From positions 211,342 to 275,341 of the forward strand of contig DAOULU010000012.1 in NCBI GenBank assembly GCA_034417075.1: DNA of 64,000 nt, in the 5' to 3' direction. Made by a program: the position numbers and the translations under genes. Under the pieces are notes generated by a model, which was given only the letters and a program-made list of their open reading frames with translations, searched no databases and was not told the origin of the DNA. Below, piece by piece: positions 24,184-43,807 of this stretch (positions are counted from its first letter, which is position 1; every line of letters starts with the position of its first letter). The stretch is from Anaerolineales bacterium (GTDB lineage: Bacteria; Chloroflexota; Anaerolineae; Anaerolineales; E44-bin32).

Positions 24184-27100
24184 TCATTCATTGTCTAGCG
24201 CATTACGAATCGCATCAGCCAAGAGATCCACGTCGTAAGGTTTGTGAATCACGGCGGCCACTCCAGCTTGCCGCAGATGATCCAGGTCCTCGGCGATGAT
24301 GTGGCCCGTAACCGCGACCGCCTTGATGGTAGACCCCAATTGACGCAATTCACGCAGTAATGCAGCTCCTCCGATCTCTGGCATAACGACGTCAGTAAAG
24401 AGCAGGTCGATATCACCGTTTGTTTTATAGACTTCCAATGCCTCCTTGCCGTTCGATGCAGATAGAACGTGGTACCCCAAGTCTTCCAGTATCTGCTGGC
24501 CGACTTCACGCATCTTTTCATTGTCCTCCACCAGTAGGATGGTTTCCCCGTTTCCCTGCGGGATGGATGAAAACACACCGTCCTGCGAAGACAGATGTTT
24601 TTCAGGTTTACACAGTGGTAGGTATACATGAAATGTCGTGCCCTTTCCCACCTCTGTATCCACATTGACTTGACCGTTATGCTGTTTCACGATTCCATAT
24701 ACTTGCGACAACCCCAGTCCGGTTCCCTTGCCGGTGTCTTTGGTCGTGAAGAAAGGTTCGAATATGTGCGGCAGCACTTCTGGTGGAATGCCGGTACCGG
24801 TGTCGGAAACGGAAATGCGGAGCCAGTTTCCCGGAACCATGCCCGCAGTCGGTGGATCTTCGTGTTCTTCGAGATGCAAACTGGACAACTTGATCCGCAG
24901 TGTCCCGCCCTTCGGCATTGCGTCGCGAGCGTTGACCACTAAATTCATAAGGACTTGCTGAATTCGAGTGGGGTCGGAATCGACGATGTACTCATCCGGA
25001 TCGATCTCCAGGGTAAGGGAGATATTTTCCGGGATCGTGCGCTTCAGAACTCGCACCGTTTCCTTTATGAACGGCCCAAGATCCACCAAACTCGTCTCGA
25101 TCGGCGATCGGCGACTGAAATCCAAGATTTGCTGCACCAGGTTGGCAGCATGCTTCGATTCTTTGAGGATCGTCTCGAGTGACTTTTTGATATCTTCGTT
25201 CACTTCATGTTTACGTAGCGGTCGTTGCGCGTAAAGCATGATCGTGGTTAACATGTTGTTGAAGTCGTGTGCAATCCCACCGGCCAACTGTCCAACCGCT
25301 GCGAGTCTTTCTTGCTGGTGGATGCGTTTTTGAGTCTCACGTTCTTTGGTCACATCTCGCAAGACCAGGACCCAACCCTTGGATTGCGTTCCTTTTTCTA
25401 ATTCCTTCGCGATGGCTTCAAAGAACCGCTCTTTGAATATAATCCGGCACCAAGGATTCTTCGGATCACGATCCAATACATCTGTAAGAGGGCGATTGCC
25501 GAGTTGTGAGAGGGTATCGCCAAATCCCATTTCAGCAAGAAGTTCGAGGTCCCGTTCTCCTGTCGGATTGGCAAGCAGGATCAATCCATCTTTATCGAGC
25601 AGGATAACTCCTTCGGGGACCGTGTCGATTATTTGCTGTACCTGGCGCATTTGTTCCTGAATCCGTTCCAACAGGCGCAGACGTTCTGTTGCAGTCCCTA
25701 ATTGTTGGCCGACGGCAATCACGAGATCGATTTCCTCTTTCGGCCACGAGCGTGGCTGCATGGCCGAGAGAATCAGCCCGCCGATGAAGATTCCATTCTC
25801 GGCCATGATGGGCGCAACGATTGAGGCGCCAACACCCTGCCGAGTCATGATCGAGGAAATCGGTGCGAGTGATTCGTTCTCGGATTCATGTGACCAATCA
25901 TCGATGGCGATCGGATTCGTGATCCGTGTTCCTTCGTGGGTCAGAATGTCGCGTGTGACGCTGTCGACAATGCCCTCCGGAATGCCGCGCGTGACGACGT
26001 TGGGTGGAATCCAGATACTTCCGATCTCCAAGTCGATGGCTCGGAGCGTATGGTCAAGGGCGGTTTCCAGTAATTGATCGAGATCCGCTTCTGTTGCAGC
26101 GGCGGATATGATCGTGTTCAACGCTTCTACCTGAACTGAACGGCGACGGATCTTCTCATCCGCTTCCCTTAGTTCCTGAAAAGCATTTGCTCCTTGGATT
26201 GCGGCGCTGATTTGGGTGGACAAAGTCTCGCACATTTCTGTATCGAGGTTATGCATCCCAAGAACCAAATACCCAAAGAGTTCGTCGCGGAAGTAGAGCG
26301 AATTGACCACGAGTTCATGTCTACGGTCGTTTAGTAGGAATCCTTCTGGAAATAGATTAACGGCCGGGAATGATTGTCTGACGTCATCGGCCGTGTCTAT
26401 TCTTCCTTCTATGTTGTAGGACAGCATTAGCCTGGCGTTTTTTCTGCTTTGATTTGGGCCATCAAAGAGGCATATAACACAACTATGAATTCCGATGCTT
26501 GGAAAATGATCCCAAATCGTTTCCATTAAGTTCGTCATGTCGTACGTGGTCAGCAATGCTTGGTTCGTATAACGTAATGGCTCAGCGATGTGCTCCTCTT
26601 GCAGTCTCAAATAGGAAGTGGATAGGGCTCCAATTTTACCCAGCAGTAAATTTGCTCGCCGCCAGAGCTCCGCCGTCCGTCTGGAGGATTCAATATCCTT
26701 GACGAGTGGCATAGTGAGCTGATTGAGAGTCGACATCGCATATTGCCACCGATATGCGTCGGTTCCATCAATCAAGCCGCGACGTAATATCTTCTCCAGC
26801 AATATTATGAATTCATCGGGATCGCTTTGATTGGTAAGCGCGTTGAAAAAGATGTCAACCAATTCCGATGTGTTTCTCGTGATCAAGTCTTCTTGTGAAT
26901 AAGACGGGTTATATGCTTCGACGACCTTTTGGACAACATAATCTCGCTGTGCGGTATGATCGTCAGACATCAGAAGCACTTTATCTTCTTGTAGAGAGCC
27001 TTCGGATTTCGGTTCCGGCTCACATGCACAACTCAGGCGCCGGACCAAAGTTGTTGGCATCAATTCACAATCCGGCACTTCTCCGCCTTCCAAAATCGTT

Positions 27101-27972
27101 ATGAGGAATTCCACAGCGCGCTTTCCGATCTCGTACATCGGTTGTCGTACCGTGGTTAGTGGTGGATTGGAAATATTGGCATCCATGACATCGTCATAAC
27201 CGATGATGGCGACGTCATCCGGAACATCAATACCACGAGTTTGAATGGCTTCCATGGCAGCCAGCGCCATGGTATCGTTTGCGCCAACCAACGCGTCGAA
27301 TTCTACCTTGCGCTCATCCAGAAGGACGCGTACCGCTTTCGTTCCCGAATCTCGGAAAAAATCTCCTTCAATGACCAGACTGGGGTCCAATGGAATGCCA
27401 TACTTCTCGAGTGTGTCGAGATAGGCCTGGTATCGCCGATGTGCTTCGGCACTTCCATCAGGACCACGAATGAAAGCGATTTTTCTCCGATTATGTTTCT
27501 GGATAAGATGGGCGATTGCATCTTGCATGCCTGTGAGGTCGTCGGCTAATATGCTGGGAACTCCTGCGACTTCTAATCCAATGCTGACAGTTGGAAGTGG
27601 AAGGTATCGACGGCAGAATGTGGTCAACTCTTCAAAGTTAACACATTGACCGATCACACCTGCTCCGATGATCAGACCATCAACTTGTTTCTCTGGAATT
27701 AATTCATAGATTTCGTTGCGTTGGTATTCGTAATTATCGAAATTCATCGTGGCATTCAAACAGCCACCGGTGTAACAAATCACACTCGCATCATGGTTGC
27801 GCGCAGCTTCGATGATTCCTCGCCATACTTCGAATTGGTATCCGCTCGTGCCGAGAATTCGATCGACCAGAAACGCAATTGTTGGGCGCGTGCTAAAATT
27901 TTGGGAATAGTGCGTGTACTTGCGATTTCCATTTGGTATAGGCATCGACACGCTTTCTACAGCAGGCTCCAC
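24184..27972 (-). CDS. soluble hybrid sensor histidine kinase paralog lacking the first PAS module
   Basis: 1262 aa with the same order of domains as its neighbours, but ~155 aa (coiled coil + PAS) are missing between the GAF-like module and the GAF domain. H-box [23 protein letters not shown] / [13 protein letters not shown]. Confidence 0.9.
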   Translation of the reverse strand: MEPAVESVSMPIPNGNRKYTHYSQNFSTRPTIAFLVDRILGTSGYQFEVWRGIIEAARNHDASVICYTGGCLNATMNFDNYEYQRNEIYELIPEKQVDGLIIGAGVIGQCVNFEELTTFCRRYLPLPTVSIGLEVAGVPSILADDLTGMQDAIAHLIQKHNRRKIAFIRGPDGSAEAHRRYQAYLDTLEKYGIPLDPSLVIEGDFFRDSGTKAVRVLLDERKVEFDALVGANDTMALAAMEAIQTRGIDVPDDVAIIGYDDVMDANISNPPLTTVRQPMYEIGKRAVEFLITILEGGEVPDCELMPTTLVRRLSCACEPEPKSEGSLQEDKVLLMSDDHTAQRDYVVQKVVEAYNPSYSQEDLITRNTSELVDIFFNALTNQSDPDEFIILLEKILRRGLIDGTDAYRWQYAMSTLNQLTMPLVKDIESSRRTAELWRRANLLLGKIGALSTSYLRLQEEHIAEPLRYTNQALLTTYDMTNLMETIWDHFPSIGIHSCVICLFDGPNQSRKNARLMLSYNIEGRIDTADDVRQSFPAVNLFPEGFLLNDRRHELVVNSLYFRDELFGYLVLGMHNLDTEMCETLSTQISAAIQGANAFQELREADEKIRRRSVQVEALNTIISAAATEADLDQLLETALDHTLRAIDLEIGSIWIPPNVVTRGIPEGIVDSVTRDILTHEGTRITNPIAIDDWSHESENESLAPISSIMTRQGVGASIVAPIMAENGIFIGGLILSAMQPRSWPKEEIDLVIAVGQQLGTATERLRLLERIQEQMRQVQQIIDTVPEGVILLDKDGLILLANPTGERDLELLAEMGFGDTLSQLGNRPLTDVLDRDPKNPWCRIIFKERFFEAIAKELEKGTQSKGWVLVLRDVTKERETQKRIHQQERLAAVGQLAGGIAHDFNNMLTTIMLYAQRPLRKHEVNEDIKKSLETILKESKHAANLVQQILDFSRRSPIETSLVDLGPFIKETVRVLKRTIPENISLTLEIDPDEYIVDSDPTRIQQVLMNLVVNARDAMPKGGTLRIKLSSLHLEEHEDPPTAGMVPGNWLRISVSDTGTGIPPEVLPHIFEPFFTTKDTGKGTGLGLSQVYGIVKQHNGQVNVDTEVGKGTTFHVYLPLCKPEKHLSSQDGVFSSIPQGNGETILLVEDNEKMREVGQQILEDLGYHVLSASNGKEALEVYKTNGDIDLLFTDVVMPEIGGAALLRELRQLGSTIKAVAVTGHIIAEDLDHLRQAGVAAVIHKPYDVDLLADAIRNALDNE

Positions 27973-28049
27973 TGGTCGTAATTGTTAGAGAAATCCTTTC
28001 GGTGATGTAGTCGCACGGAATGCGGACGGCCTATTTCTTGTTGCGATTA

Positions 28050-31000
28050 TCACTTACCGTCTAAGACCTTCCGAATTTCATCGGCCACTTCTTTCACTTC
28101 CAAAGGTTTGAATATGATCCCCGAAACGCCGTCATTTCGCAGTTCTTGAAGATCCTTGGCAAGCATATGTCCAGTTACTGCAATGGTTTTAACTGTGGAG
28201 CCCATATCACGCAGGGAGTGTAATAAAGCAACGCCGCCGACTTCCGGCATGACGACGTCGGTAAAAACGAGATCGAAATCTCCGTTCTGGCTGAAGAGAT
28301 CCAGAGCTTCACGACCATTTTTTGCAGCCACAACCTCATAGCCCAAGTCACGTAGCATTTCTTCGCTCACCTCTCGTACGTGTTGGCTGTCCTCGACGAG
28401 GAGGATGCGTTCGCCTGTGCCTTTGGGGATATCGATGTTGTCGGTGGGTAAAATTTCGAATTTTTCGGCTGACTGATGGATCGGAAGATAGACGAGGAAT
28501 TCAGTGCCTTCACCGACCGTGGAATCCACTTTAATGAAACCCTCGTGCTGTTTGACGATGCCCCAAACCTGAGACAAGCCCAATCCCGTTCCCTTGCCGG
28601 CGGCTTTCGTGGTGAAGAAAGGCTCGAAAATATGCGGCAAGATATCCTCGGGTATACCTGTTCCTGTGTCTTTAACGGACAGGCAGAACCACTTTCCTGG
28701 TGTTATGCCAGGAACTGGAACATCATCATCGCTATCTTCTTCATGAACGATCACGCTTGACACGCCGACTCGCAATACTCCACCTTCTGACATAGCGTCT
28801 CGCGCATTCACAACCAGGTTCATCAGGACCTGTTGAATGCGAGTCGGATCTGATTCGACGAGGTACTCATCTGGGTCGATCTCGATGTACAACGAGATGT
28901 TCTCGGGAATAGTTCGTTGTAGTACACGCACGGCTTCTTTCACGAACGGTCCAAGATCGATGGGATGTCGTTCGATCGGTGCGTGTCGGCTGAAATCGAG
29001 GATCTGTTGAACCAAATCTGCTGCCTTACGAGACTCGCTGAGGATCGTCTCGAGGGGTTTTTTCAGATCATTCGGCAGCTGTTGTTTGCGTAAGGGCATT
29101 TGAGCATAAAGCATGATTGTCGTAAGGAGGTTGTTGAAGTCGTGGGCTATTCCACCAGCGAGCTGGCCGACAGCTGCCAGGCGTTCCTGTTGTTGCACTT
29201 GGCGCTGTGTTTCACGTTCATGGGTCACATCTCGAATCACAACGACCCAATTTTTTGATGCACCAGGGGTATTGATGGGTTGTGCGATGATTTCAAAAAT
29301 TCGGTTGCTGGCATTGACCTCATGCCAGGGGACATCCGATTCTTCTTGAAGGATTTTAGAAATGGGATAACCACCGAGGTGGGAAATTTCAGTGCCGACG
29401 GATGTTTTCGCCAGTACATGTAAGTCTCGTGTCCCCGCGGGATTGGCTAGGATCACACGATTGTTCGAGTCAAGTAGTAGCACACCGTCTGGTACGGTGT
29501 CTGTGATTTGCTGCACTTGCTTCATTTGTTCATGGATCTGTTCCATAAGTCTAAGCCGTTCGGCTGCTATTCCTACTTGATAGCCAACCGCTTGCAAGAG
29601 AGTGGTTTCTTCTGTGGTCCACTCAAATGCATTGGGAGAAGCGATACATAGACCTCCGATGCGATTTCCTCCCTCGGTTTTTATCGGAACGGTGATCGAA
29701 GTCCGAACGTCATGTGGTTTGAGAATGGCCTCAAAGAAGCCATAACGCGGGTCTTCTTCCGCTACTTCTTGCCAATCATTGACAATGACGATTTCCGGCA
29801 GATTATTACTTTCAGGATCGTAATGGTAGTGTGGTGATTCATTCTCCGATGGTAACAATTCTCGGAAAACCGCGTGTGGATGGATCCAAATAAGACCCAT
29901 ATCCAAATCAAGTGCGTGGAGGGATAAATCCAAAGCAATTTTCAATAACTCTTGGAAATCGACTGCAGTTGAAGTCAAGCTGATAATCGTGTTGATCGCT
30001 TCTAGGTGGGCGGCGTGGCGTCGAAGTTCTTGCTCCGCTCGCTTGGATTCAGTAATGTCTCTGGAAATACCGAATGTGCCGGTGATTTTTCCCTTCTCAT
30101 CTCGTATAGGTAATTTGGTTGTCGAGACCCACGTTTCGTGTCCGTCCGGCCAGGTCTCTTTTTCTTCTTTCCCGATAATCGGTTCTCCAGTATCGAGCAA
30201 ACGCACTTCGTCTTTAAAAGCTTCCTGTGCATGTTCCTCGGTGTACAAATCAAATACGGTTAATCCCAGCATTTCGTCGGGAGATTCTTTCCCGTGTATC
30301 TTGGCACACACTGGATTGACCTTAATAAACCTACCCTCTTGGTCTTTAAAGTAGATGACATCCGTCGTTTGATCCATTAACAAGTGTAATAAGTATTGTT
30401 CCCGAGTTAATGCTTGTTGGGCCTGCTCACGGTCTACGATCTCGAATTCTAGCTCGATGGCTTTTTCGATAACCTGTTCCTCAGCTTCCGTGTAGGCTTG
30501 CTGCAGCAGTTCATGCTCTTGTTGTCGCGCTCGGAGTAGTAATGCGTAGTTGAGGGAACTGCTTATTTGTTCTTGCAGCATGTCACAGGCTCTTCCATCC
30601 GGTGGATATATTTCGAAAAGTACTACTCCGAGAGGTTCATCAGCGCTTTCGAGGGCTTTAACCACAAAAGAACTTATCTTCTTTCGGGAACCAATTTCTT
30701 TACGAGGAAGGATAGTCGCTGAAGGAGCAATCGCATCAGTTTCCAGCGCCAATCGACCGTTCTCATCGAACGCCAGTATCATCCTTAATAAACTTGGTTC
30801 CGTCTGCAAATCGTCTTCCTGCAGTGCATATGCACCTTCGTAGAGGGACAGATAGCAACTCCGAATTCCGAAACGAGGTAGATTTCGATGGAGGATCTCG
30901 AGTAAATCATCGAGTTCGTGCGCTGTCGACAAAGCTCTGGTAGTCTCACGCATATTCGCGTATTGTCGATCGTAGATCAACGATTGACGCGTTTCGATCT

Positions 31001-32315
31001 GTTGGACCGTCTCACCGATCAACACACGAGATTGATGGACGAGTTCCTCAATTCGTTCCGTTGTTGTTTTATCTTTAAATTGCAGGAGTGAAAAATGACG
31101 AAGTAAAGAAACCACTTTTTGCCATTCGTTGATTTCAGTCTCTACCGATACCGTCTCTTCGAAACATTGAGCGAGGTCCTTTAGGAAATTGCCGGAACCA
31201 TTATTTTCGATATCCGTAATGAAAGATTCGAATAGCCGCTTGCTCCAGTTTGTGATCGATCCTTCGACCGTAGAGTCAACGATTTGTGCGATCGCTTTAA
31301 TTCCATCTTCGGGATTCGTATTTGATGTATCGGACTCGACAGGATCGATAATCGTTTTTGTGATCGCACGTCCAACGGCAGATGATGTACAGCCGCATGA
31401 TTGACGGATGCATAGTTCTGTGGGGATATTGACGAGATCTGGGACAACGCCACCCTGCAATTTGGTTAGTACGATGTTAACTGCATGTCTGCACTGCTCT
31501 TTTAAATGTTGGCGGACTGTGGATAATGGTGGAGTAGCAGCTTTTGCAATTGCTTGGCCATCAAATCCAGCTATGGCTACATCACCAGGGACTTCTAGTC
31601 CCCGGTTTCTCAATGCCCACATCGCAGCGAGGGCAATCGAGTCGTTTACACTTACAATCGCGTCAAAATCTACATTTCGCTCATCGACGAATAGTCGTAC
31701 GGCATCTTCGCCTGTAGCTGCATCCCAACTACCTGGCTGCGAGAGTAGATCTAGGTCTAGTTGGATGTTGGATTCTGAAAGCGCATCTTTATATGCCTGG
31801 AATCTCGTTTCTGCTCCGATCTGTCCTTCAGGTCCCCGGATGAAAGCGATACGTCGATAGCCATGATCTACGATTAGATGACGTACCAAATTGTGCATGC
31901 CGACGTAGTTGTCGGAAAGGACCGTCGGGATGCCATCGACCTGCTGGCCGATGCTGACAATCGGTTTGGATATGAACTGGTGGCAAAATTCACGAAACGT
32001 GTTCTGTGGGACAGAAGTTCCAAGTCTTGCTCCATAGATTATGATGGCGTCGATGACATCTTCGCTCGCAGCTCGAAATAAGGAACCGATTGGATTGGTG
32101 TTCCCATGCGATTCATCGATTAAATCGACCGCGATCGTCACAACATTGGCGTTTCGCTCATGCGCAGCTTCAACAACCGCAGTCCACATGGCCAAACCGA
32201 AATGGTCTTCCATTGCGGCAGTGAGGAAGGCAATGGTAGGCAGCGAGATTGAAGATTGGTTTTTGTCGCCATTGTTAGCTGGACGGTCTTGTTTCATATT
32301 TGGTGCCACTAACAT
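28050..32315 (-). CDS. soluble hybrid sensor histidine kinase paralog: LacI-type domain, GAF-like, PAS, GAF, PAS, HisKA, HATPase, REC
   Basis: 1421 aa, co-linear with 19847..24103. H-box [23 protein letters not shown] / [13 protein letters not shown]. Confidence 0.9.
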
Positions 32316-32337: not shown

Positions 32338-32787
32338 CTATTCCTCATCCAGTGCTTGTCGAACTGCGACGGCTAAGATATCAACGTCGTATGGTTTGTG
32401 AATGATCGTTTTAACGCCGGCTTCCTTTAATTGATCCAAATCCTCAGCCAATATGTGGCCCGTCACTGCAAGCGCTTTCACCTGCGACCCAGATTGGCGT
32501 ATCTTTTGAAGCATAGCTGCGCCGCCAACTTCAGGCATCACGACGTCAGTAAATATCAGATCGATATCCTCTGACTGGTTAAAAACTTTAAGTGCTTCTA
32601 GACCGTTCGATGCACAAAGAACTTGATATCCTAAATCCTCTAAAATCTGCATTCCGACTTCACGCATCAAGTCATTGTCCTCCACAAACAAGATGGTTTC
32701 CCCTTTTCCTTGTGGGACGCCTCTAATTGTTTCTTCTTCTTGAAGATTGAAATCAGGCTTTTCCATAGAAAGTGGAGGTTCACTCAT
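32338..32787 (-). CDS. stand-alone receiver (CheY-like) domain protein, homologous to the C-terminus of the adjacent hybrid kinases
   Basis: [21 protein letters not shown] and HKPYDVDILAVAVRQALDEE closely match the REC of 24184..27972. ATG 32787 overlaps the stop of the upstream transposase-like ORF by 8 nt; the ORF track starts at TTG 32829. Confidence 0.75.
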   Translation of the reverse strand: MSEPPLSMEKPDFNLQEEETIRGVPQGKGETILFVEDNDLMREVGMQILEDLGYQVLCASNGLEALKVFNQSEDIDLIFTDVVMPEVGGAAMLQKIRQSGSQVKALAVTGHILAEDLDQLKEAGVKTIIHKPYDVDILAVAVRQALDEE

Positions 32788-34018
32788 TAAAAAATCCTTT
32801 TCCCTTGTAAACCCACCAGGCGTGAGCAATCATTGATAAAGTAAAATGACGATGCCAGCTGTTCCAGCGACGGACTCCATAGTCGTCCATCTTAAAAAAT
32901 GTGCAAGCTTCTGCTACCATTTGTTTTAAACTTCCAAGTGCATTGGTAATCGTTGCGAGATTTGTCAATGACGAGTCTTCTGTGGCGTTCGATATAAAGT
33001 ACGCAGTTTCACAGCGTTGACTTACCGATCGGCGCGCTAGCAGCCACACTTCATGGGAGGTGTCCCCATCAGGGTGTTCAACGACGCGATCTGATGCCCA
33101 ATCGAAGACACAAAGTTCATCGTCATTGGTGCCGCCAATCAAGCGTTTCCATTTTTGCTCGGGCCAAGAAGAGACGATTTTGAAAATTGTGGGTTCGACA
33201 GATCCATTTTCCCCTTTGTCCGATATTTGCGAATCGTCATCGGGATCGGTCTGCCGGTAAGTAGAATCGGTTTTTCGGCCGGGAAGAATGTAATTCATAC
33301 CTGTCGCCTGGATGACGATGCGCAAATTCGGATCGTCGCAAAAAGGTTCCGCACCAACAATCCACTGCATCGGTGTTCCAATGGCATGAACCGACTGAAG
33401 CATATCCAGGGTGAGATCGGATTTGCTTCGATATTCAATGTTCTCGGGAATTTTCGCTTCTCGTCTTCGCTTGTGATCTTCAGCCCATTCCACGGGGAGA
33501 TAGAGACGACGGTCGAGGAATGTTGAACCTTTGGCGGAGGTGTAGCCTAAGAATAAGCAGACCTGGCAATTCTGTTCTCTGTTGATTTTGTGGTTGAATT
33601 GTGGCTGCACACCGACGGTCTTTGCCCCTTTTTTCGGAAAATATGTAACTCCGATGAGACAAATGCCATCCTCGTCCCCTAATTCTGATACGATGAATTC
33701 CTGAAGACGAGAATGAACGGCTTCATCGTCCCATTGCGCACCAAAAAACAATCTTTGGGCGGCTTTGGATGATTTATTATTGTTGGAAGTTAATGGATTT
33801 CTTCCGCGAGACTTGCGCTCCGCATTTTGGAGTAGAGACTGTACATAATGCAGTGCTTGTTGTCGCGTTTCGGTCCGCGCGAAATATTCATCGAATTGAT
33901 CGTGGAAAAATTCTTCGAACTCGGACCATTCACACGATCGGTCGACCGTTGAAAGAGAATTGATACCAACTTCTGAAATACTTCCGCCTCTTCCGTTCAT
34001 CACCCAAATACTTTTCAC
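32780..34018 (-). CDS. IS701-family (DDE) transposase-like protein, possibly catalytically degenerate
   Basis: Co-linear with the IS701 consensus as I recall it: FARTETRQQALHYVQSLL..ERK, FPKKGAKTVGVQ, NCQVCLFLGY, LYLPVEWAEDHKRRREAKIP, WNSWHRHFTLSMIAHAW. No terminal inverted repeats found. Only 27-45 nt separate it from the upstream gene. Confidence 0.7.
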   Translation of the reverse strand: MKSIWVMNGRGGSISEVGINSLSTVDRSCEWSEFEEFFHDQFDEYFARTETRQQALHYVQSLLQNAERKSRGRNPLTSNNNKSSKAAQRLFFGAQWDDEAVHSRLQEFIVSELGDEDGICLIGVTYFPKKGAKTVGVQPQFNHKINREQNCQVCLFLGYTSAKGSTFLDRRLYLPVEWAEDHKRRREAKIPENIEYRSKSDLTLDMLQSVHAIGTPMQWIVGAEPFCDDPNLRIVIQATGMNYILPGRKTDSTYRQTDPDDDSQISDKGENGSVEPTIFKIVSSWPEQKWKRLIGGTNDDELCVFDWASDRVVEHPDGDTSHEVWLLARRSVSQRCETAYFISNATEDSSLTNLATITNALGSLKQMVAEACTFFKMDDYGVRRWNSWHRHFTLSMIAHAWWVYKGKGFFNE

Positions 34019-34045: not shown

Positions 34046-34438
34046 TCAAGATAGGAATTCAACGATTTGTTTAATGGCCTGATTCGTCATGCGTCGGTAG
34101 CTGTGGTCTGGTGGTGCAATAACCGCAAGAATCATTTCCTCGCCGCCGGCTTTTAAATATCGACAAACCAAACGCATCCGATTGGAATCAAGAATGGAAA
34201 ATTCATCAATTTCTGCGAGCGGAAATTGATCACGTACCTCTTTGCTCATTCTTTTAAGCATCGCAATCATGGCTGCGGCTTTATCAGTATCGAAATTCGC
34301 AGGTACGGTTGCGATCGGCAACCCTTCACCGCTGGCAAGAACGGCGGTCTCAAATTGACCTTGTTCGTGCAAGGTGAGCAGCAATTCGTCAAGCGTTACT
34401 GGTTGGTACGTGGCCGAATCAACTTGTTGATAATTCAT
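34046..34438 (-). CDS. Roadblock/LC7 (MglB-like) domain protein
   Basis: 130 aa, single-domain size, with FETAVLASGEGLPIATV...MRLVCRYLKAGGEEMILAVIAP, the typical Roadblock pattern. Confidence 0.8.
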   Translation of the reverse strand: MNYQQVDSATYQPVTLDELLLTLHEQGQFETAVLASGEGLPIATVPANFDTDKAAAMIAMLKRMSKEVRDQFPLAEIDEFSILDSNRMRLVCRYLKAGGEEMILAVIAPPDHSYRRMTNQAIKQIVEFLS

Positions 34439-34471
34439 TGTAACCTTCCTAAAGCCACAAATTATCGAATG

Positions 34472-34963
34472 CTAATTTTCGCCAAACAGACTCTCAATTT
34501 CCGTGGTCAATGCTTGCCCAAATTCATCATCGACAATGCGTCCCTGTTCCTTTTGTACGCGTTCGAACTCCGCAGCAAGCGGGAGCAAGTTCTTCACGGC
34601 TTGGCCTGTGAAAAGGCGTACAAGACCGATCTGGACTTTTGTGCTGAATAAGACGACGAGCAAAAAACTACCGGCAACGTTCGAAAGATAGATATTCTGA
34701 TCGTCCCCTTCGTGGAACATGAGTTTGAAGGGATTTTCCTCACCGATCTGGCGGGCAATCTCTGCCGTGGCAGCCATGTTGCTGGCGGTTAAAGCAGAAA
34801 GGATCACTGGATCAAAGGTCTTCGTAAACCCTTGTTGGCAGATCAGCTGTCCGCTGATGTCTGCCAATAAGACGCAGCAGGCTTGGGTTTTCTCCAGCAA
34901 TTGCGATAAGATCTTGATGATCTTCGTCATCAGAGCTGGGGGTATGACTACTTTATCTGACAT
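34472..34963 (-). CDS. Roadblock/LC7 (MglB-like) domain protein
   Basis: ATG 34963 is preceded by a gggagg RBS. ACCVLLADISGQLICQQG...FLLVVLFSTKVQIGLV fits the Roadblock pattern. The longer ORF to 35086 is unlikely. Confidence 0.8.
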   Translation of the reverse strand: MSDKVVIPPALMTKIIKILSQLLEKTQACCVLLADISGQLICQQGFTKTFDPVILSALTASNMAATAEIARQIGEENPFKLMFHEGDDQNIYLSNVAGSFLLVVLFSTKVQIGLVRLFTGQAVKNLLPLAAEFERVQKEQGRIVDDEFGQALTTEIESLFGEN

Positions 34964-35144
34964 TGGGTACCTCCCGAGATTGGTTGGCGTTGACTTTCGA
35001 GTTCGAAGCTCTGCAGGTTTCGTTGGAAGTCCCGCCGAATTTCCGATGGAGCGACAGAATTTGGATGTGTCCAAAGGTCGTCCCATCGTCTAGTTTGTGA
35101 CGGGTATAGTTTAAATTCCCAGGAAACATGCTCGTAACACATGG

Positions 35145-35927
35145 TTATGTTCTTCTCCGCAATCGTTCGATTGCAGCTTTCAGGCTGACTCTCATTCGCT
35201 CAATCGATCGAGCAAGATCCTCCATCTCGTCGCCAGTGTCGGCAACAATGGGGCTGTCTAAATCGCCTCGACTGATGCTCTCGGCTGCCGAGCTGAGGTA
35301 TAAAGCTGCACTCGTCAAGCCACGACTGATCGTCAGGGCGCTCAAAATGCCGATAATGATGCCAATGGCAACGACGATAATTGCGATTCTCATGATGTTG
35401 GTGATCTGACTCCCAATAACGTTGAGAAGTTGGTTCTGCTCGACTTCAACCACAGAGAGTAATTCATCCATCGCAGGTCTTACAATTTGAATGAAGAAAA
35501 TATCGGCTTCATCGATGTCAAGTAATGTGCTGGTAATGTCATTCGGATTAGATTCATAGGCCGATTGTGCATTCTCAAGATATTGGTGGTAGATCGCGAC
35601 CGCTTGTTCGATGTCCGATAAATAATCTGAATATTGAGCGCTTGAATTTTCGACTATGTTTGTCCACTGTTGGTTGTATTCTTCTCGAAGATCAGCGAGC
35701 GCTGTTTCTTCTCCGGTTGCAATATGATGACTCAATGATGTCCGTTCCATCAGCAAGAGTCTCATACCTCTTTCGACAAATTCAATGGTTTGCAGCGCTG
35801 TGATTGAATCTCGCGTTGCGTTGGTTAGCGTGTTTAATCCGAGGAAGACCCCAACCCCGATCAAGACTAGCAAGACCAGAGGGATTCCGAGACCAATTCC
35901 CAATTTTCTCCCGATGGTCAATCTCAT
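35145..35927 (-). CDS. membrane protein: two TM helices, helical extracytoplasmic domain and HAMP domain, with no output domain
   Basis: TM1 [25 protein letters not shown]2 [27 protein letters not shown]-like [50 protein letters not shown]. The ORF ends ~15 aa later. Confidence 0.8.
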
Positions 35928-36012
35928 CTTTATTTAGATCTCCTTAATCCTTGTCGTAGAACGGACTCTTACCCTTATACCCGATATGGCAGACCGCTGC
36001 GTTTCAACTGTG

Positions 36013-36801
36013 TTAAATACTTCGCAACAAATCTAGCATGATCTGTTGAAAACGCATGCGTTGATCTGAGTCCTCAATTTCCGTGCTCACCTGTTCCACC
36101 AGGTCAGCAACTTTGTTTCGCGGAAAGGATTCTCTGGTTTCATTCAAGTCGGCGATTTTTTCATCAATTATCACCGGCCCCATTGGGCCGATCACTTCAA
36201 TGAATTCGTCATTAAGTCGATCGAAAAACTCGTTGTCGATGGCAGTTATGGGCAACGACTTCGATTCTTCGACGATCTCTAGCAGTCCCGTCTTTACAAG
36301 CCCGGCAAGGACGTTTGCGGCTTTAAAGTCTTCCCATCCCAAGGATTCGGCGATGTCGTCGATTGTGCGTACTCCGTTTACCTGCGCCAAGACCTTCCAT
36401 TCGTCCGGTTCCAAGTTGATCGCCCCCGTCGTTCCTTGGGCAAGGTTGAAAACCGCCTCCATCGATGGAATGACGTCCTTAATTTCGGACCATCCCTTGA
36501 TTCGTTTTTCCCCTTCACTGAGGAGCACCTCTGTTGACGTCGAAATGGACTCCTCTGGTGGTTCAATACCGCTCACGAAATTGAAGTTCCCATGCAGCCA
36601 TGATAGTAGGAAATAGAAAGCTTCTTCTCCCATTTGTGTCCCGGTGATGACATGAACGATGTTGCCATTCCGTAAGAAAATCTCACCGGTATTGCTCCCA
36701 TCCGATAAATCAAGTTTTCCCGTTTGACGCCCTGATTTTAATAATTGAATGATATTCGGGAGTGACAATTGGTTTAGATCACCCCGTAGAGCTTCTGCCA
36801 T
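36013..36801 (-). CDS. PATAN (DUF4388) domain protein
   Basis: N-terminus LRGDLNQLSLPNIIQLLKSGRQTGKLDLSDGSNTGEIFLRNGNIVHVITGTQMGEEAFYFLLSWLHGNFNF is the DUF4388/PATAN signature. ATG 36801 overlaps the upstream stop (TGATG). Confidence 0.8.
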   Translation of the reverse strand: MAEALRGDLNQLSLPNIIQLLKSGRQTGKLDLSDGSNTGEIFLRNGNIVHVITGTQMGEEAFYFLLSWLHGNFNFVSGIEPPEESISTSTEVLLSEGEKRIKGWSEIKDVIPSMEAVFNLAQGTTGAINLEPDEWKVLAQVNGVRTIDDIAESLGWEDFKAANVLAGLVKTGLLEIVEESKSLPITAIDNEFFDRLNDEFIEVIGPMGPVIIDEKIADLNETRESFPRNKVADLVEQVSTEIEDSDQRMRFQQIMLDLLRSI

Positions 36802-37238
36802 CACACGACTCCCTCATTAATGGTTATGTACAAACGCCAGGATATTTCATCGACATCGTCTTCCTGCACGATCCGGATGACCTGTTCTTTTGGTGCAATA
36901 TTGCCTAGTTGTGTTTCGAATTCCGGTCCGGATAAGTTTACATTCAATGTCAGTCGAAGAAGGGCGATGTCCACATTTGATTTGCAGATTACGACGAGCA
37001 AAGCCTGGTTGAGGTCGCGAATCAACACCCGGATTCCTTCATACGTCAGATCAAGTTCTTGAATCCCGTTCTGTATCCTGGCAGCGATTGCTTGCGTCAC
37101 TTGACGGCTGATTCCACGCAAAACCGCGATATTCAGGTTCCCGGGAACAGCGTTCACGATCACGTTGCCGTGATTGTCACAGATGAACGATCCGAGTACA
37201 CCGTCCAGTGCGTTGATTTCAGCGAGTACTTGGTCCAT
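36801..37238 (-). CDS. Roadblock/LC7 (MglB-like) domain protein
   Basis: 145 aa with LDGVLGSFICDNHGNVIVNAV...ALLVVICKSNVDIALLRL, the Roadblock pattern. Begins 9 nt after the upstream gene. Confidence 0.8.
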   Translation of the reverse strand: MDQVLAEINALDGVLGSFICDNHGNVIVNAVPGNLNIAVLRGISRQVTQAIAARIQNGIQELDLTYEGIRVLIRDLNQALLVVICKSNVDIALLRLTLNVNLSGPEFETQLGNIAPKEQVIRIVQEDDVDEISWRLYITINEGVV

Positions 37239-37247
37239 GTTGATCTC

Positions 37248-38258
37248 TTAGTCGGCCGTGAAACCAAGGATGAATGGACCTAAGCCCAGGCGCTTGATTG
37301 TGTCGTCGTATTTATCCTTTACCGCCTTCATTTCGGTCTGGATTCTATGTTCCAGATCCGCGGCTGCCGGTTGGGAGGCCAGCTGCTCGATTGTCGTGCT
37401 CAGGCAGTCGCTGAGACCTTTACTCAAATTCTTGGCATCGCCGCTGTATTGGATTATGCCGTCCTTGTATTGGAACAAACCGGCGAAGGGATCCAGAAAT
37501 GGATATTCGTTGGCCTTCTCGATCATGACGTATTTGAATGTCTCGAGGAACTGGCCTGCGCCGATTGTAGAGTCCGACATTTTCTCGATCGTACCAATCG
37601 TCTCACCCCACACGGCAAGCAAGCGTGGGAGATCGAAACCAGCTTCGATCTCTTCGCTCTCGGCAAACGAAGCTTCAATGGCCGCGTTGTAAACGTTGAA
37701 GTCCGCTCCCAAAGCTGAAGCATTCTCGACGATGTGAGGCAGAATCGCATCTCCGGATATCGCCTCATCCTGCATCGAGAGGATGCTCTCGACGACTTCA
37801 CCGTTTTCGAGGAAGACAATCGCGACGCCATCACCGCCTGTCATCCTAACCTCGATGTAGCCGGTGTGCCCCTCATTCTTCAGTTTCGAGATGAGTTTTT
37901 CGAGGCTGGTGAAGTCTGTGTTGAGATCCTTGTAGCGTACCTCGCTTCTCACGGTACTGGCGAGCATGGTTACCTTCTTTGGTGAGAGGCCATACACGCT
38001 GATGGAACCGTCTTTTTGGTTGACTTTTGTCGTAATGCTGCCGACGGCATCGTGGCTGGTCTTTCGTTTCCCGCTCACCTCTTCGATGGCATTGATGATG
38101 TTCCCATTGTCCATGAAAAGTGCGGCTTCGTAATCCCAAAAACTGATGTGAACGTATCCGGTGAAGCTGTTGGACTTGAGATCCAGCAATAATTTACCGA
38201 AACTTGTAAAAGAGGTATTCAGATTCTCGTAGATTGGTTTTCCCTTTGGTAATAACAT
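37248..38258 (-). CDS. hypothetical protein with two divergent PATAN/DUF4388-like repeats and a helical C-terminal region
   Basis: Repeats FGKLLLDLKSNSFTGYVHISFWDYEAALFMDNGNIINAIEE and LEKLISKLKNEGHTGYIEVRMTGGDGVAIVFLENGEVVESI. ATG 38258 has an aggag RBS. Domain call is tentative. Confidence 0.6.
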   Translation of the reverse strand: MLLPKGKPIYENLNTSFTSFGKLLLDLKSNSFTGYVHISFWDYEAALFMDNGNIINAIEEVSGKRKTSHDAVGSITTKVNQKDGSISVYGLSPKKVTMLASTVRSEVRYKDLNTDFTSLEKLISKLKNEGHTGYIEVRMTGGDGVAIVFLENGEVVESILSMQDEAISGDAILPHIVENASALGADFNVYNAAIEASFAESEEIEAGFDLPRLLAVWGETIGTIEKMSDSTIGAGQFLETFKYVMIEKANEYPFLDPFAGLFQYKDGIIQYSGDAKNLSKGLSDCLSTTIEQLASQPAAADLEHRIQTEMKAVKDKYDDTIKRLGLGPFILGFTAD

Positions 38259-38351
38259 TGTGTTTCTCCTATGAGAGCTAATCTTTGTCGAAACGGTTGC
38301 CTTCATTCGACGATTGCTCGAATAGTAGCATCCGGATTTTTCCTCAACGCA

Positions 38352-39062
38352 TCAATCTTTATCCTTTCGATGCCTTCTCTTCGTGACTTGTATTGAATTG
38401 GCTGTGGCACTTACTGGGATTTTTGGATCCATGGACAAAACCGTAAGCTGTTTTTCGGACGGAAAGACGATCATTCTCCAACCCTCGCCGGACATGGTGA
38501 TTTGCTGAAGCGCTCCGGCGTTTAAAAGGATACCTAATTCTTCTGCGCGTCTCCCGGTAAAAGCAGTGAGAGCCGCCGTCGCTTTGGGATCCTTCGTTGA
38601 CTCGAAACCTATGATGTCACCGTATTTCGATGCAACGAGTGCACTTTCGATGCCATTGATGCGTGTGAAATCTTTTACCATCCGTACAGCAGCTTCATGT
38701 TCGGCTTTCTTTTTTTCCCGATCGGCATCTTCATCGTCACTGCTTTTCATCAGGGTCTGCTCGTCGATGCGTCGCAGCCCTTCCAACAGCAAATGGGACC
38801 AGTTGGTATCTACGCTGCGTTTCGGCGCGCGTATGTCTTTCGTTAATTCGAACGTCCCATCTTCCCAGGTTAGAAGTTCGAAGATCACGTCTTCTCCTTC
38901 TTGCGAACCCAGCGTCATGTGGACGATGTCCCCCTCATCGAAAAACAAGGTTCCCTCTTGATCCCGATGTTTCACAAGGAGACGTGCTTGATTCATCTCA
39001 TTGCAATTAATGCTGATCAGACTGGATAGACTGATGTCAATTAAATTCCCCTGAACTGCCAT
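38352..39062 (-). CDS. PATAN (DUF4388) domain fused to a Roadblock/LC7-like domain
   Basis: N-terminus QGNLIDISLSSLISINCNEMNQARLLVKHRDQEGTLFFDEGDIVHMTLGSQEGEDVIFELLTWEDGTFEL (PATAN). C-terminus INGIESALVASKYGDIIGFES...WRMIVFPSEKQLTVLSM (Roadblock-like). ATG 39062 avoids overlap with the GTPase gene. Confidence 0.75.
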   Translation of the reverse strand: MAVQGNLIDISLSSLISINCNEMNQARLLVKHRDQEGTLFFDEGDIVHMTLGSQEGEDVIFELLTWEDGTFELTKDIRAPKRSVDTNWSHLLLEGLRRIDEQTLMKSSDDEDADREKKKAEHEAAVRMVKDFTRINGIESALVASKYGDIIGFESTKDPKATAALTAFTGRRAEELGILLNAGALQQITMSGEGWRMIVFPSEKQLTVLSMDPKIPVSATANSIQVTKRRHRKDKD

Positions 39063-39088: not shown

Positions 39089-39661
39089 TTAAAGTTGTCG
39101 GACCACGAGATTTATGATGGCTTTCAAAGTATCGAATACGCCATGTCCCTTGATCGCGGACGAGCCCATACAAGGGACGCCATTGACATTCATCTGCGTC
39201 TTTAAATCATCGGGTTTGATCACGTCGGGAAGGTCCTGCTTGTTGAATTGAATAACGCAGGGAAATGAATCGATCGGCGTCCCTAGCTGCATCAAGTAGT
39301 TTTCGAGCGCTTTGAGATCATTGACGTTATCGGTTAGACGATCACGCTGCGAATCGGCAACGAATACGACTCCATCGGATCCTTGAAGGACGAGTTTTCG
39401 GCTTGCTTCGTAATACACCTGCCCGGGTACGGTATACAGACTGAATTTTGGTTTCAGACCATTGATACTCCCGAGTTCTAATTGCATGAAATCGAAGAAT
39501 ATCGTTCGATCTTCACGCGTTTTCAAAGAAACCAATTCCCCGCGCGATTTGGGGTTGATGTGTCCGTGGATGAATTGTAGGTTTGTCGTTTTTCCACTGC
39601 GAGCAGGGCCATAATATACAATCTTGATATGTAGCTCGCCCAGCTTCTGGTTTATGTACAT
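39089..39661 (-). CDS. mglA: MglA-family Ras-like small GTPase
   Basis: 190 aa, co-linear with Myxococcus/Thermus MglA as I recall them: KIVYYGPARSGKTTNLQ (P-loop), EDRTIFFDF (intrinsic Arg), LYTVPGQVYY (switch II with Thr in place of Asp), NKQD (G4). ggagga RBS. Confidence 0.92.
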   Translation of the reverse strand: MYINQKLGELHIKIVYYGPARSGKTTNLQFIHGHINPKSRGELVSLKTREDRTIFFDFMQLELGSINGLKPKFSLYTVPGQVYYEASRKLVLQGSDGVVFVADSQRDRLTDNVNDLKALENYLMQLGTPIDSFPCVIQFNKQDLPDVIKPDDLKTQMNVNGVPCMGSSAIKGHGVFDTLKAIINLVVRQL

Positions 39662-39757: not shown

Positions 39758-40759
39758 CTATTTCGCCTTTTTAGTTTCTTTCAACTCAGATGGAACAAGC
39801 CCGGCATTCATTGCGTCTTCAAAGTTGATTAATTCTCCTGTACCGATATCCAGCAGGATCTCGTCGTCTAGCAATTGATCGAGTTCGGCATTCATTGCTT
39901 CCGCCAGGTTGTCGGAATCGATCTCCGCATCCTTCTGATCGGCGATCAGTGGAGCCAGTTCGGCGGCCGTTTGTTTGGTGTAATGCCATACCGCACCGGG
40001 TTTGGTTTCCGAACCGAAGATTACCGCTAAAAGGAAGTCTCCATCCACATCGTGCGCATAGATGTTGTATTCCGGCCCTTCATGGAAACTGGATTTAAAA
40101 ACCGAATCGCTTTTCAGGATTCTGGCCAATTCGGATGAAGCTGCGAAATTCGCAGCTACAAGTGCACTGATGTTTGATGTATCCATTCCGCTCGTCACAC
40201 CCGCTGTTTCAACCATATATCCATTGGCACTCAACAGTAATACGCATGAGGCTCCGGAGTCGGCCTGTAATTTATTCAATTTTTCACGCAGCGGTTCGCC
40301 AAGATCTCGCATCTCGGGCTGTTCATCGCTATTCATCGAGCCGATTGCTTTTTCAACGATCTCTCGAATCTGCGTCATGCTGAAGGGTTTATCGATAAAG
40401 CCTTCGAGATTCAATTCCTCGACGGATGAACGCAACTCCTTATTTCCATACGCCGTAATAAGGACTACTTTCGTATCCGGGGAGATTTCACGAACGGCTT
40501 TTGCTAAATCCAAGCCGTTCATGGTCGGCATCATATAGTCGGTTATGATCAGTTCGTAGGAACCGCTTTTAACCTTTTCAAGGGCAGCCGCGCCGCTATT
40601 TGCCGTATCGACAGTATACTCATCGCAAAGTTTGCTCAAGTAATTTGTCAAGGCTTTCAAGATTTCATGCTCATCGTCTACGATGAGCAAATGCCTGGTA
40701 TCTGCATCTTGAGTCGTCAAGTCGATTCTCCCAATACGCTTACCTTCCTGGATTGCCAA
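39758..40759 (-). CDS. response-regulator receiver domain fused to a Roadblock/LC7-like domain
   Basis: REC motifs LLIVDDEHE, ELIITDYMMPTMNG, ITAYG, DKP. C-terminal half ASCVLLLSANGYMVETAG...DFLLAVIFGSETKPGAV is Roadblock-like. TTG start at 40759, or TTG 40720 with a gggaga RBS. Confidence 0.8.
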   Translation of the reverse strand: MAIQEGKRIGRIDLTTQDADTRHLLIVDDEHEILKALTNYLSKLCDEYTVDTANSGAAALEKVKSGSYELIITDYMMPTMNGLDLAKAVREISPDTKVVLITAYGNKELRSSVEELNLEGFIDKPFSMTQIREIVEKAIGSMNSDEQPEMRDLGEPLREKLNKLQADSGASCVLLLSANGYMVETAGVTSGMDTSNISALVAANFAASSELARILKSDSVFKSSFHEGPEYNIYAHDVDGDFLLAVIFGSETKPGAVWHYTKQTAAELAPLIADQKDAEIDSDNLAEAMNAELDQLLDDEILLDIGTGELINFEDAMNAGLVPSELKETKKAK

Positions 40760-43288: not shown

Positions 43289-43807
43289 ATGACGGAATTA
43301 ATTCCAGAAAGAATACCCGACTGTGCAGCACGACTACTTGCTCGGGCCGAGTGGTATGTGGATCCGGGCGTCGTGCGGCGGGCGAAACTCAAGCTGGCGA
43401 GCGGTTTGGCGGCATTTCTGAGCAGCGAAAGATTTTCAAAAGGCAAGATGGCAGCAATTACGCTCGGAAAGACTATTCATTTCTGTGGTGCAGATCAATT
43501 TCAGCCGCATACTGCGAACGGCTTGGCGCTGATCGCTCATGAGTTAAAACACGTCGAACAGTACGAAAGATACAAGCTGGTCAAGTTCTACGCTAAATAT
43601 CTATGGGGGTTTATCCGGCATGGCTATGGAAAGGAGATCGACCTCGAGTCGACGGCGTATGCGCTCCAGGCGGCCGTGAAAACGCATCTGCAAAACGAAT
43701 TTAACGCGAATGCGGGTCGCGATCCTTGCCTGCAGATGGGTGAACCACATACGCCGAATCTCGAATTTGTGATGACCGTGCCTGCAGTATTCGAGGATGA
43801 TTTATGA
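43289..43807 (+). CDS. DUF4157-domain (HExxH metallopeptidase-like) protein
   Basis: GLALIAHELKHVEQYER matches the DUF4157 signature. Strong ggaggg RBS. Confidence 0.7.
   Translation: MTELIPERIPDCAARLLARAEWYVDPGVVRRAKLKLASGLAAFLSSERFSKGKMAAITLGKTIHFCGADQFQPHTANGLALIAHELKHVEQYERYKLVKFYAKYLWGFIRHGYGKEIDLESTAYALQAAVKTHLQNEFNANAGRDPCLQMGEPHTPNLEFVMTVPAVFEDDL

Follow-up and report, generated by a model that had tools for sequence, protein, structure and literature searches.

MglA and MglB are the paradigm of small-GTPase control of cell polarity in bacteria, and work on them has, to our knowledge, been almost entirely confined to Myxococcus, Bdellovibrio, and Thermus. In Myxococcus xanthus, extra Roadblock and receiver inputs to this switch are provided by MglC, RomR, and FrzX/FrzZ. 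An association of mglA/mglB with genes for PATAN domain proteins was reportedly noticed by Makarova and coworkers in 2006, was recorded again in 2014, and has stayed unexplained. Here, we describe a minus-strand gene cluster in a stretch of 64,000 nucleotides (the window) from an Anaerolineales bacterium of the phylum Chloroflexota (GenBank assembly GCA_034417075.1, contig DAOULU010000012.1). Within 22 kb, it encodes one MglA, six Roadblock domains (three stand-alone, one fused to PATAN, and two fused to a receiver domain, REC), and a total of four PATAN domains spread over three proteins. On balance, and with some reserve, we favor the view that six small genes of this cluster, judging from their sequences, form the core of a signaling operon that is conserved and passed on vertically, an expanded MglA/MglB switch gated by two-component signaling and equipped with PATAN adaptors.

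Several described systems share parts with this locus. The theme of extra Roadblock and receiver inputs in M. xanthus also emerges from two reports (PMC9481161 and PMC10329633). M. xanthus MglB is a GTPase-activating protein (GAP), whose C-terminal helix (Ct-helix) has an allosteric role similar to that of factors for guanine nucleotide exchange (GEFs; PMC6785124). A subset of Group 1 MglA proteins is coupled to two MglB-family genes, and Group 1 and Group 5 mglA genes occasionally neighbor PATAN genes, for which Makarova et al. 2006 is cited (PMC4316618). Actinobacterial conservons (CvnA-CvnB-CvnC-CvnD/Mfp) unite in one operon a GTPase of the MglA family, a HAMP membrane sensor, and a Roadblock protein (PMC4316618; bioRxiv 10.1101/2025.07.03.663114). 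In Synechocystis, PATAN is an output domain binding PilB1 and PilC (bioRxiv 10.1101/2021.06.11.447907). Our literature search found no paper on MglA in Chloroflexota, on the cassette described here, or on the domain families DUF2226 and DUF8082. The general MglA/MglB-PATAN theme has been noted before; the family of tandem PATAN-like proteins, the HAMP receptor, and the cassette as a whole are uncharacterized. The operon consists of the following genes, for which the supporting method is given in brackets.

39758..40759, minus strand, fusion of REC and an MglB-type Roadblock domain, first operon gene in the window's clade (Pfam)
39089..39661, minus strand, MglA, a Group-1-type Ras-like GTPase (full-length match to M. 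xanthus MglA structures)
38352..39062, minus strand, fusion of PATAN and a divergent Roadblock domain, Rb2, 236 amino acids (Pfam, profiles)
37248..38258, minus strand, tandem PATAN-like protein with a helical C-terminal domain, 336 amino acids (hhalign, AlphaFold2 [AF2] model)
36801..37238, minus strand, cryptic stand-alone Roadblock with a C-terminal extension, as modeled, 145 amino acids (AF2, Foldseek)
36013..36801, minus strand, PATAN followed by a winged helix-turn-helix (wHTH)-like segment and DUF8082, 262 amino acids (Pfam)
35145..35927, minus strand, HAMP membrane receptor without output domain, 260 amino acids (Pfam, transmembrane segments)
34472..34963, minus strand, MglB orthologue by sequence, with a D/E-rich C-terminal tail, 163 amino acids (Pfam, PDB sequence match)
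34046..34438, minus strand, second stand-alone Roadblock of generic type, Rb8, 130 amino acids (Pfam)

A first-pass annotation, made from the DNA letters alone, had placed six Roadblock and PATAN genes at these positions, with the HAMP protein between them, and all six open reading frames were confirmed there, on the minus strand. In public contigs that contain this locus in identical form, independently made gene calls agree in their starts and lengths (236, 336, 145, 262, 260, 163, and 130 amino acids), Pfam confirms the HAMP protein, and the domain calls for all six genes survived profile or structure tests. In comparison with four related species-level genomes, ratios of nonsynonymous to synonymous substitution (dN/dS) were 0.03 to 0.13 for the six small genes and 0.17 to 0.29 for the HAMP gene. 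Thus, on this sequence comparison, the six are constrained genes under purifying selection and not chance open reading frames. The idea that their spacing indicates translational coupling was overstated, as only two junctions are tight enough to suggest it, a 9-nucleotide gap (37248/37238) and a 1-nucleotide overlap (TGATG, at 36801). The other intergenic gaps of the operon measure 26, 93, 85, 181, and 33 nucleotides, and a pattern scan for promoters and terminators gave counts no higher than in shuffled sequences.

A gene for the tandem-PATAN protein is present in 224 species-representative genomes, from which the 80 best loci were annotated with iterated family profiles. The consensus gene order in these loci is PATAN-Rb2 (with or without a preceding REC), tandem-PATAN, cryptic Roadblock, PATAN-DUF8082, HAMP receptor, MglB, MglA, and Roadblock, and the components Rb2, HAMP, cryptic Roadblock, and DUF8082 were present in 75, 73, 71, and 70 of the 80, respectively. 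Carriers are mostly Anaerolineales and other Chloroflexota, and also include Thermodesulfobacteriota/Syntrophobacterales, KSB1, and NC10. MglA was located no more than 10 kb from the cassette in 30 of 41 well-flanked loci, defined as having at least 5 kb on both sides. The two points on which the first-pass annotation had staked its proposal, the domain assignments and co-conservation with the GTPase, therefore both stood. Compared with the consensus, the window's clade (at least five species) has lost the REC of the first core gene, MglA has moved upstream to a position behind the REC-MglB-type gene, and a DDE_5 transposase-family gene and a REC gene follow the last Roadblock gene. An N-terminal REC is part of the orthologues of 38352..39062 in most other lineages. 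All-against-all clustering of the 80 loci, inspected for an effector conserved beside the cassette, returned only cassette genes, antisense artefacts, and lineage-specific neighbors.

Variants of the cassette were observed in individual lineages. In an NC10 genome (L062), PATAN-Rb2 is fused in frame to tandem-PATAN in an open reading frame spanning the anchor at 10001-10981, and a 591-amino-acid protein (P0287) is an in-frame fusion of the type REC-PATAN-...-tandem-PATAN; these fusions argue that the PATAN-Rb2 and tandem-PATAN proteins work together. In groundwater Chloroflexota (L063:8397-9332; also L061, L067, L076, and L082), a REC-Ras fusion (PF00071, 4e-40) directly precedes PATAN-Rb2. 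Loci of this clade also contain an MglB-MglA pair downstream and a HAMP protein with a dCache sensor, followed by a gene for a solute-binding protein. A battery larger than that of the window lies beside the cassette in one Anaerolineales genome (L001/L020, approximately 13300-20000), where three genes encode MglA, nine domains are of the Roadblock type, and one gene codes for a PilZ domain protein.

MglA (39089..39661), the sole MglA-profile match in the 64-kb window, aligned over its full length with M. xanthus MglA structures (E 1.5e-56, residues 2-190) and matched Thermus thermophilus MglA at 8e-53. As read from the M. xanthus alignment, its P-loop is GPARSGKT, and Arg52, Thr77, and Gln81 (TVPGQ, 77-81) align with M. 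xanthus R53, T78, and Q82. Following the criteria of Wuichet and Sogaard-Andersen 2014, it falls into Group 1, considering its Ras-like fold and P-loop similarity, TxxGQ motif, catalytic Gln, and intrinsic Arg finger. An MglB is encoded within four genes of MglA, since the REC-MglB-type gene lies immediately upstream. The stand-alone protein 34472..34963 matched Robl_LC7 above the Pfam gathering score (1.1e-10) and M. xanthus MglB (6izw_B) at E 7e-19, in a full-length alignment reaching the D/E-rich C-terminal tail, which would correspond to the M. xanthus allosteric Ct-helix (PMC6785124). The Thermus model for MglB, NF052242, matched it over its full length with 59.5 bits, below the curated cutoff of 200, making it an orthologue-level MglB relative rather than an NCBI "equivalog." By sequence, 34472..34963 is an MglB orthologue and the predicted Roadblock GAP of MglA. 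Distance-matrix (mirror-tree) correlations over 33 complete loci, which are inflated by shared phylogeny and suggestive only, coupled MglA with MglB (r 0.97, partial 0.85), revealed a second co-varying block of Rb2, tandem-PATAN, and cryptic Roadblock (partial 0.42-0.45), and linked DUF8082 distances to MglA (partial 0.50). The MglA-MglB co-variation is consistent with the predicted role of 34472..34963 in stimulating GTP hydrolysis by MglA, and the two proteins are, as far as sequence can tell, a cognate pair.

Two further MglB-type Roadblocks are fused to receivers. In 39758..40759, Pfam detected Response_reg (2.5e-26) and Robl_LC7 (2.2e-7), and its Roadblock family aligned with the MglB-type family of 34472..34963 at an hhalign probability of 100% (E 4e-64). 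Reading its sequence revealed the receiver residues DD..D..T..K and a D/E-rich C-terminal tail. The second fusion, 18656..19687, matched Response_reg (4e-25) and our own MglB-type profile (9e-29), whereas Pfam found only its REC. The two fusions share 30% identity over their full length and the C-terminal motif LI[NS]F[ED][ED]A..G[LI]VP, and the phospho-acceptor residues of their REC domains are intact. All three MglB-type proteins are mutually related at hhalign 100% and end in D/E-rich tails. With 18656..19687 as the second REC fusion, the earlier count of four stand-alone or PATAN-fused and two REC-fused Roadblocks for a single GTPase holds. The notion that these are interchangeable copies had to be corrected: to judge from their profiles, they are of two kinds, three MglB-type and three divergent or generic.

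The locus thus shares with the M. xanthus/T. thermophilus switch a Group-1-type MglA with intrinsic Arg, TxxGQ, and catalytic Gln, an orthologue of MglB that likewise ends in a D/E-rich tail, and extra Roadblock paralogues and receiver domain proteins that would feed the switch. It differs in that the receivers are fused directly to MglB-type Roadblocks, in that the operon includes, as integral members, a HAMP receptor and proteins with four PATAN domains in total, and in its Chloroflexota host. Neither 34046..34438 nor 36801..37238 showed MglC-specific similarity among PDB sequences, and Pfam and NCBIfam scans of the operon gave no RomR/X/Y-type match, with the limit that RomX/RomY models are possibly not in those libraries. 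Since no MglC or RomR/X/Y was recognized, the locus is not, by its gene content, a full Myxococcus polarity module.

A domain was accepted as Roadblock/LC7 (PF03259) if it matched above the gathering score or had the alpha-beta-beta-alpha-beta-beta-beta fold. The Pfam Robl_LC7 gathering score was passed by 34472..34963, 34046..34438, and 39758..40759. The C terminus of 38352..39062 stayed below it (E 0.03, 14.5 bits); several orthologues carry both PF03259 and PF14332 in precomputed Pfam annotation, one of them also REC, and the COG name given by JGI is "Roadblock/LC7/MglB." A profile of this C-terminal domain, Rb2, made from its stand-alone version, had an Asgard Roadblock as top structure match. 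Rb2 and the family of 36801..37238 are each other's closest relatives (hhalign 93%, E 3e-7). No match to 36801..37238 was obtained in Pfam and NCBIfam scans. Its AF2 model has the alpha-beta2-alpha-beta3-alpha Roadblock topology, and Foldseek retrieved LAMTOR2, Asgard Roadblock, and MglB with probability 1.00 and target-normalized TM-scores of 0.69 to 0.78; the best structural matches were of the LAMTOR2/LAMTOR3 type, a similarity at the level of fold only (16-21% identity). According to this model, 36801..37238 is a cryptic Roadblock missed by Pfam. The third protein of this kind, 34046..34438, matched Robl_LC7 at 2.9e-7 (30.6 bits, cutoff 23 bits). Its family profile had Asgard Roadblock and dynein LC7 as top PDB matches, not MglB/MglC, and it was rejected as an MglC candidate because the profile showed no MglC-specific similarity among PDB sequences. 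In most relatives, its orthologue flanks MglA opposite MglB. As in the eukaryotic Ragulator (LAMTOR1-5) and its Rag GTPases, multiple distinct Roadblocks located at a membrane anchor would here serve a small GTPase. Unlike Rag GTPases, this MglA lacks a Roadblock C-terminal domain of its own, and stacking is known for none of the bacterial Roadblocks of the locus. Multi-Roadblock arrangements of bacteria that recall Ragulator are thus found in the abundant and poorly understood Anaerolineae.

PATAN (PF14332, DUF4388/PatA_N; gathering score 25 bits) was clear in 38352..39062 (1.9e-19, 70.3 bits) and in 36013..36801 (2.9e-22, 79.4 bits). In 37248..38258, DUF4388 scored 24.4 bits, 0.6 short of the cutoff, and many orthologues carry precomputed PF14332 annotations. 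The N-terminal half and the middle of this protein aligned with each other (hhalign 99.4%, E 2e-21), indicating an internal duplication, and PATAN aligned with each repeat at approximately 91% (E approximately 1e-6). Its AF2 model (pLDDT 85.6) placed two repeats at approximately 7-102 and 106-191, with near-identical order of secondary-structure elements, followed by a helical domain containing an invariant YPFLDPF motif. Amino acids 1-115 also passed the gathering score of DUF2226, an uncharacterized archaeal family (7e-7, 29.4 bits, cutoff 22), in a match limited to profile positions 1-119 of 252. Based on these profile comparisons, 37248..38258 is best called PATAN-like. Homology of its C-terminal domain to the DUF8082 region of 36013..36801 was considered and rejected, with no hhalign match above 20%.

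A Foldseek search of the PDB with the model of 37248..38258 returned only meaningless sliding-clamp-like matches (TM-score approximately 0.13, E > 1e-3), and neither this protein nor 38352..39062 had a significant match among PDB sequences; a PATAN structure was not found in the PDB. The protein collection yielded 211 close homologues of 37248..38258, and those listed are almost all 333 to 340 amino acids long. The tandem-PATAN family forms 1,020 clusters at 50% identity. Pfam scanning of ten representatives, chosen for unusual length or added domains, gave no match for five, DUF4388 for three (one weak), and sub-cutoff DUF2226 for one (21.0 bits), without any supra-threshold match over the tandem-PATAN region. 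Hence, tandem-PATAN is a large family essentially outside Pfam and without a relative of solved structure. The first-pass annotation had been unable to tie PATAN-Roadblock fusion and PATAN duplication to any studied protein, and our literature and structure search likewise linked neither architecture to a paper or a solved structure; these architectures are nevertheless no rarities, being signature genes of a widespread cassette found in 224 genomes, with about 1,000 clusters for the tandem-PATAN family.

In 36013..36801, the PATAN domain is followed by a wHTH-like segment, which matched TrmB (1.4e-3, amino acids 142-182) and the CasR wHTH (1.4e-4), and the family profile aligned with wHTH domains of the SlyA/MarR/ArsR type over amino acids 127-183 (E 0.008-0.7). 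DUF8082 (PF26309) is annotated on a protein identical to 36013..36801. Like the cyanobacterial PatA-type regulators (PatA, PixG, PixE, and TaxP; PATAN-REC), the locus has clear PATAN domains in 38352..39062 and 36013..36801, and in its relatives PATAN is fused to a receiver. However, PatA-type proteins have an N-terminal PATAN and a C-terminal receiver, an arrangement found in none of the proteins here. In the relatives, the order is reversed (REC-PATAN-Roadblock); in the window, the PATAN proteins are free of REC and combine PATAN with Roadblock, with a second PATAN, or with wHTH/DUF8082; and the locus is devoid of Che-type genes. Considering domain order and fusion partners, these proteins are not PatA-type regulators. 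An attribution of M. xanthus PATAN proteins to MglA proximity labeling turned out to be wrong, the source being STRING co-occurrence with SgmX.

The HAMP domain of 35145..35927 (1.3e-9; TarH 0.013) occupies amino acids 209-250 of 260, and the protein ends 10 residues past HAMP, with no HATPase match in Pfam and NCBIfam. Transmembrane segments were read from the sequence at approximately 8-31 and 177-199 and enclose a helical sensor region of approximately 145 amino acids, presumably extracytoplasmic. In other lineages, the sensor is exchanged for dCache and the cytoplasmic HAMP is retained. A variable sensor combined with a conserved HAMP is what would be expected of an input receptor. A longer form of 408 to 449 amino acids, which the HAMP-receptor family profile matches twice and in which Pfam reports a single HAMP, occurs elsewhere, in a variant in which Rb2 is stand-alone. 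In an MglA-less variant of the Dehalococcoidia type, the gene of the longer receptor is preceded, at a distance of a few hundred bases, by one for an HTH_17/MerR-like protein of 221 to 226 amino acids (L066:7101-7781, L090:7123-7788), which lies upstream. The presence of a HAMP-containing membrane sensor, Roadblock, and MglA-family GTPase in one operon resembles actinobacterial conservons. In contrast to these, the sensor lacks a kinase-like ATPase domain, the GTPase belongs to Group 1 and not Group 2, and PATAN proteins are present; a Pfam scan of the operon proteins for DUF742 (CvnC) gave no match. Without a kinase-like sensor and DUF742 and with a Group 1 GTPase, the locus is not a conservon.

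It is tempting to speculate how these components might act together in an expanded MglA/MglB switch. The HAMP receptor, with its exchangeable sensor, and the hybrid histidine kinases encoded nearby would provide the inputs. Phosphorylation of the REC-MglB-type fusions could determine which Roadblock dimer engages the single MglA; in most relatives, the REC-PATAN-Roadblock protein would be the target instead. MglB and its REC-fused paralogues would compete for MglA, since all possess D/E-rich tails like the MglA-binding tail of M. xanthus, and this competition would set the GTP/GDP state of MglA and its location. Multiple alternative Roadblock dimers with opposing GAP-like and GEF-like roles, as proposed in the first-pass annotation, are plausible. 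The closely spaced tandem-PATAN, Roadblock, and PATAN-wHTH trio and the PATAN-Roadblock protein might form a stoichiometric adaptor complex at the receptor, in which Rb2 and 36801..37238, as the closest divergent Roadblocks, would probably heterodimerize. The PATAN domains would make the contact for output; by analogy to cyanobacterial PatA-type regulators, its partner would be a polar or envelope machine, e.g., type IV pilus motor proteins. With a GTPase, its predicted GAP, three more Roadblock families, all of the PATAN proteins, and a receptor in one place, in many cases directly fused, the compact and highly conserved cassette would allow the role of PATAN for MglA and the sharing of one GTPase by Roadblock dimers to be tested with eight to nine small soluble proteins.

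Several observations weigh against such an MglA-centered operon. In 11 of the 41 well-flanked loci, the five-gene core (HAMP, Rb2, tandem-PATAN, Roadblock, and PATAN-DUF8082) occurs without MglA/MglB within 10 kb, and thus the core may not need MglA. In the window's clade, canonical MglB is encoded six genes away from MglA, to which it is adjacent in most relatives, and the phylogeny shared by all components inflates their distance-matrix correlations. The wHTH-like region of 36013..36801 could, by its profile matches, mean a transcriptional output. A search for type IV pilus and other motility genes found none in the 64-kb window, and across the 80 loci none is a conserved neighbor of the cassette, so that PATAN output is assigned by analogy only. 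This raises the possibility of two independent, often adjacent modules, with the core acting, not through MglA, as a self-contained membrane-to-DNA or membrane-to-protein device and MglB-MglA-Roadblock as a separate polarity switch recruited beside it in Anaerolineales. We regard this arrangement as unlikely, though worth keeping in view. It would account for the cores lacking MglA/MglB, which are of the Dehalococcoidia/Tepidiformaceae type or stem from some Anaerolineaceae and NC10, for the weak but repeated wHTH matches, for the split of the partial correlations into an MglA-MglB and an Rb2/tandem-PATAN/Roadblock block, and for the shifting position of MglA between clades at a fixed order of the core. 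However, the core itself holds two Roadblocks, which are known chiefly as platforms for small GTPases, and 30 of the 41 loci, across Chloroflexota, Thermodesulfobacteriota, and KSB1, keep MglA/MglB in the operon. Moreover, some lineages add a REC-Ras GTPase directly upstream of PATAN-Rb2, DUF8082 distances correlate with those of MglA, and "MglA-less" genomes may encode MglA elsewhere.

A conservon- or Ragulator-like device, in which the HAMP receptor would serve as exchange-factor input in the manner of a G protein-coupled receptor, Roadblock dimers arranged in a stack would tether MglA to the membrane, nucleotide exchange would respond directly to the receptor's ligand state, and PATAN would be merely a scaffold, appears doubtful to us. 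The HAMP protein, Roadblock, and MglA-family GTPase parallel CvnA-B-D (PMC4316618), and the LAMTOR2/LAMTOR3-type structural matches of 36801..37238, the number and pairing of Roadblock domains, and the variable sensor domain fit this idea, but the LAMTOR likeness does not extend beyond the fold, the HAMP protein has no HATPase, CvnC/DUF742 is missing, MglA belongs to Group 1 rather than Group 2, and HAMP domains are not known to contact a Roadblock or a GTPase. It also seems improbable, going by sequence, that the five-gene core is a hitherto unrecognized signaling machine of its own, widespread among prokaryotes, in the form of a membrane-anchored Roadblock heterodimer/PATAN scaffold analogous to Ragulator that reads the receptor without a kinase. 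If this were the case, small GTPases (MglA or the REC-Ras fusion), where a locus has them, would be exchangeable docking partners of the core, and PATAN pseudo-dimers would form a universal output surface. Recent lineage-specific duplication, with some copies being redundant or decaying and devoid of distinct roles, is very hard to credit and already largely refuted. The two REC-Roadblock paralogues and three kinases of near-identical architecture show that duplication has been active in the cluster, which also includes a transposase-family gene. However, dN/dS did not exceed 0.13 for any gene (0.29 for HAMP), every Roadblock or PATAN gene belongs to an orthologous family of its own that is traceable across phyla in fixed gene order, and divergence among the Roadblock families is large enough for Pfam to miss one or two. 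We therefore retain the expanded MglA/MglB switch as the favored explanation of the locus, at the strength stated above.

Downstream of the last Roadblock gene, the minus-strand cluster continues with the following genes.

32780..34018, minus strand, DDE_5 transposase-family gene at the operon end (Pfam)
32338..32829, minus strand, stand-alone receiver (REC; identity to the C terminus of the 24184-27972 kinase)
19847..32315, minus strand, three tandem paralogous hybrid histidine kinases (translations, precomputed Pfam on the identical locus)
18656..19687, minus strand, second fusion of REC and an MglB-type Roadblock, closing the minus-strand cluster (Response_reg, MglB-type profile)

The DDE_5 gene (1.1e-38) is IS701-like. 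At least five species-level Anaerolineales genomes have it in the same place, behind the last Roadblock gene, with 70-76% amino acid identity and dN/dS of 0.12 to 0.13. A 1-nucleotide overlap with the downstream REC gene is seen in relatives. Terminal or flanking inverted repeats were sought at 32780..34018 and none were found; considering this, the synteny in at least five species, and a dN/dS of approximately 0.12, an active insertion sequence element was rejected, and the gene is probably, by its sequence conservation, a domesticated or immobilized transposase kept by selection. The REC protein 32338..32829 (dN/dS approximately 0.08-0.10) is 64% identical over 145 amino acids, including the pre-REC linker, to the C terminus of the 24184-27972 kinase. 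Judging from this resemblance, it is probably what remains, at the C-terminal end, of a fourth kinase paralogue that would have been cut short upon arrival of the DDE_5 gene, and purifying selection on it persists. The three hybrid kinases (1,418, 1,262, and 1,421 amino acids) comprise an N-terminal LacI/Peripla_BP-type sugar-binding-like domain, PAS, GAF, HisKA, HATPase, and REC. Their genes lie between those of the two REC-Roadblock proteins, and they are candidate phosphodonors.

An anti-phage defense system was also considered for the locus and rejected, as PADLOC gave generic REC and wHTH matches only. The operon is flanked by genes for an aldo-keto reductase and an unannotated protein of 376 amino acids. 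Just past them, 43289..43807 on the plus strand encodes a 172-amino-acid protein annotated as PF13699 (eCIS_core) on an identical public contig, and its synteny is kept in relatives.

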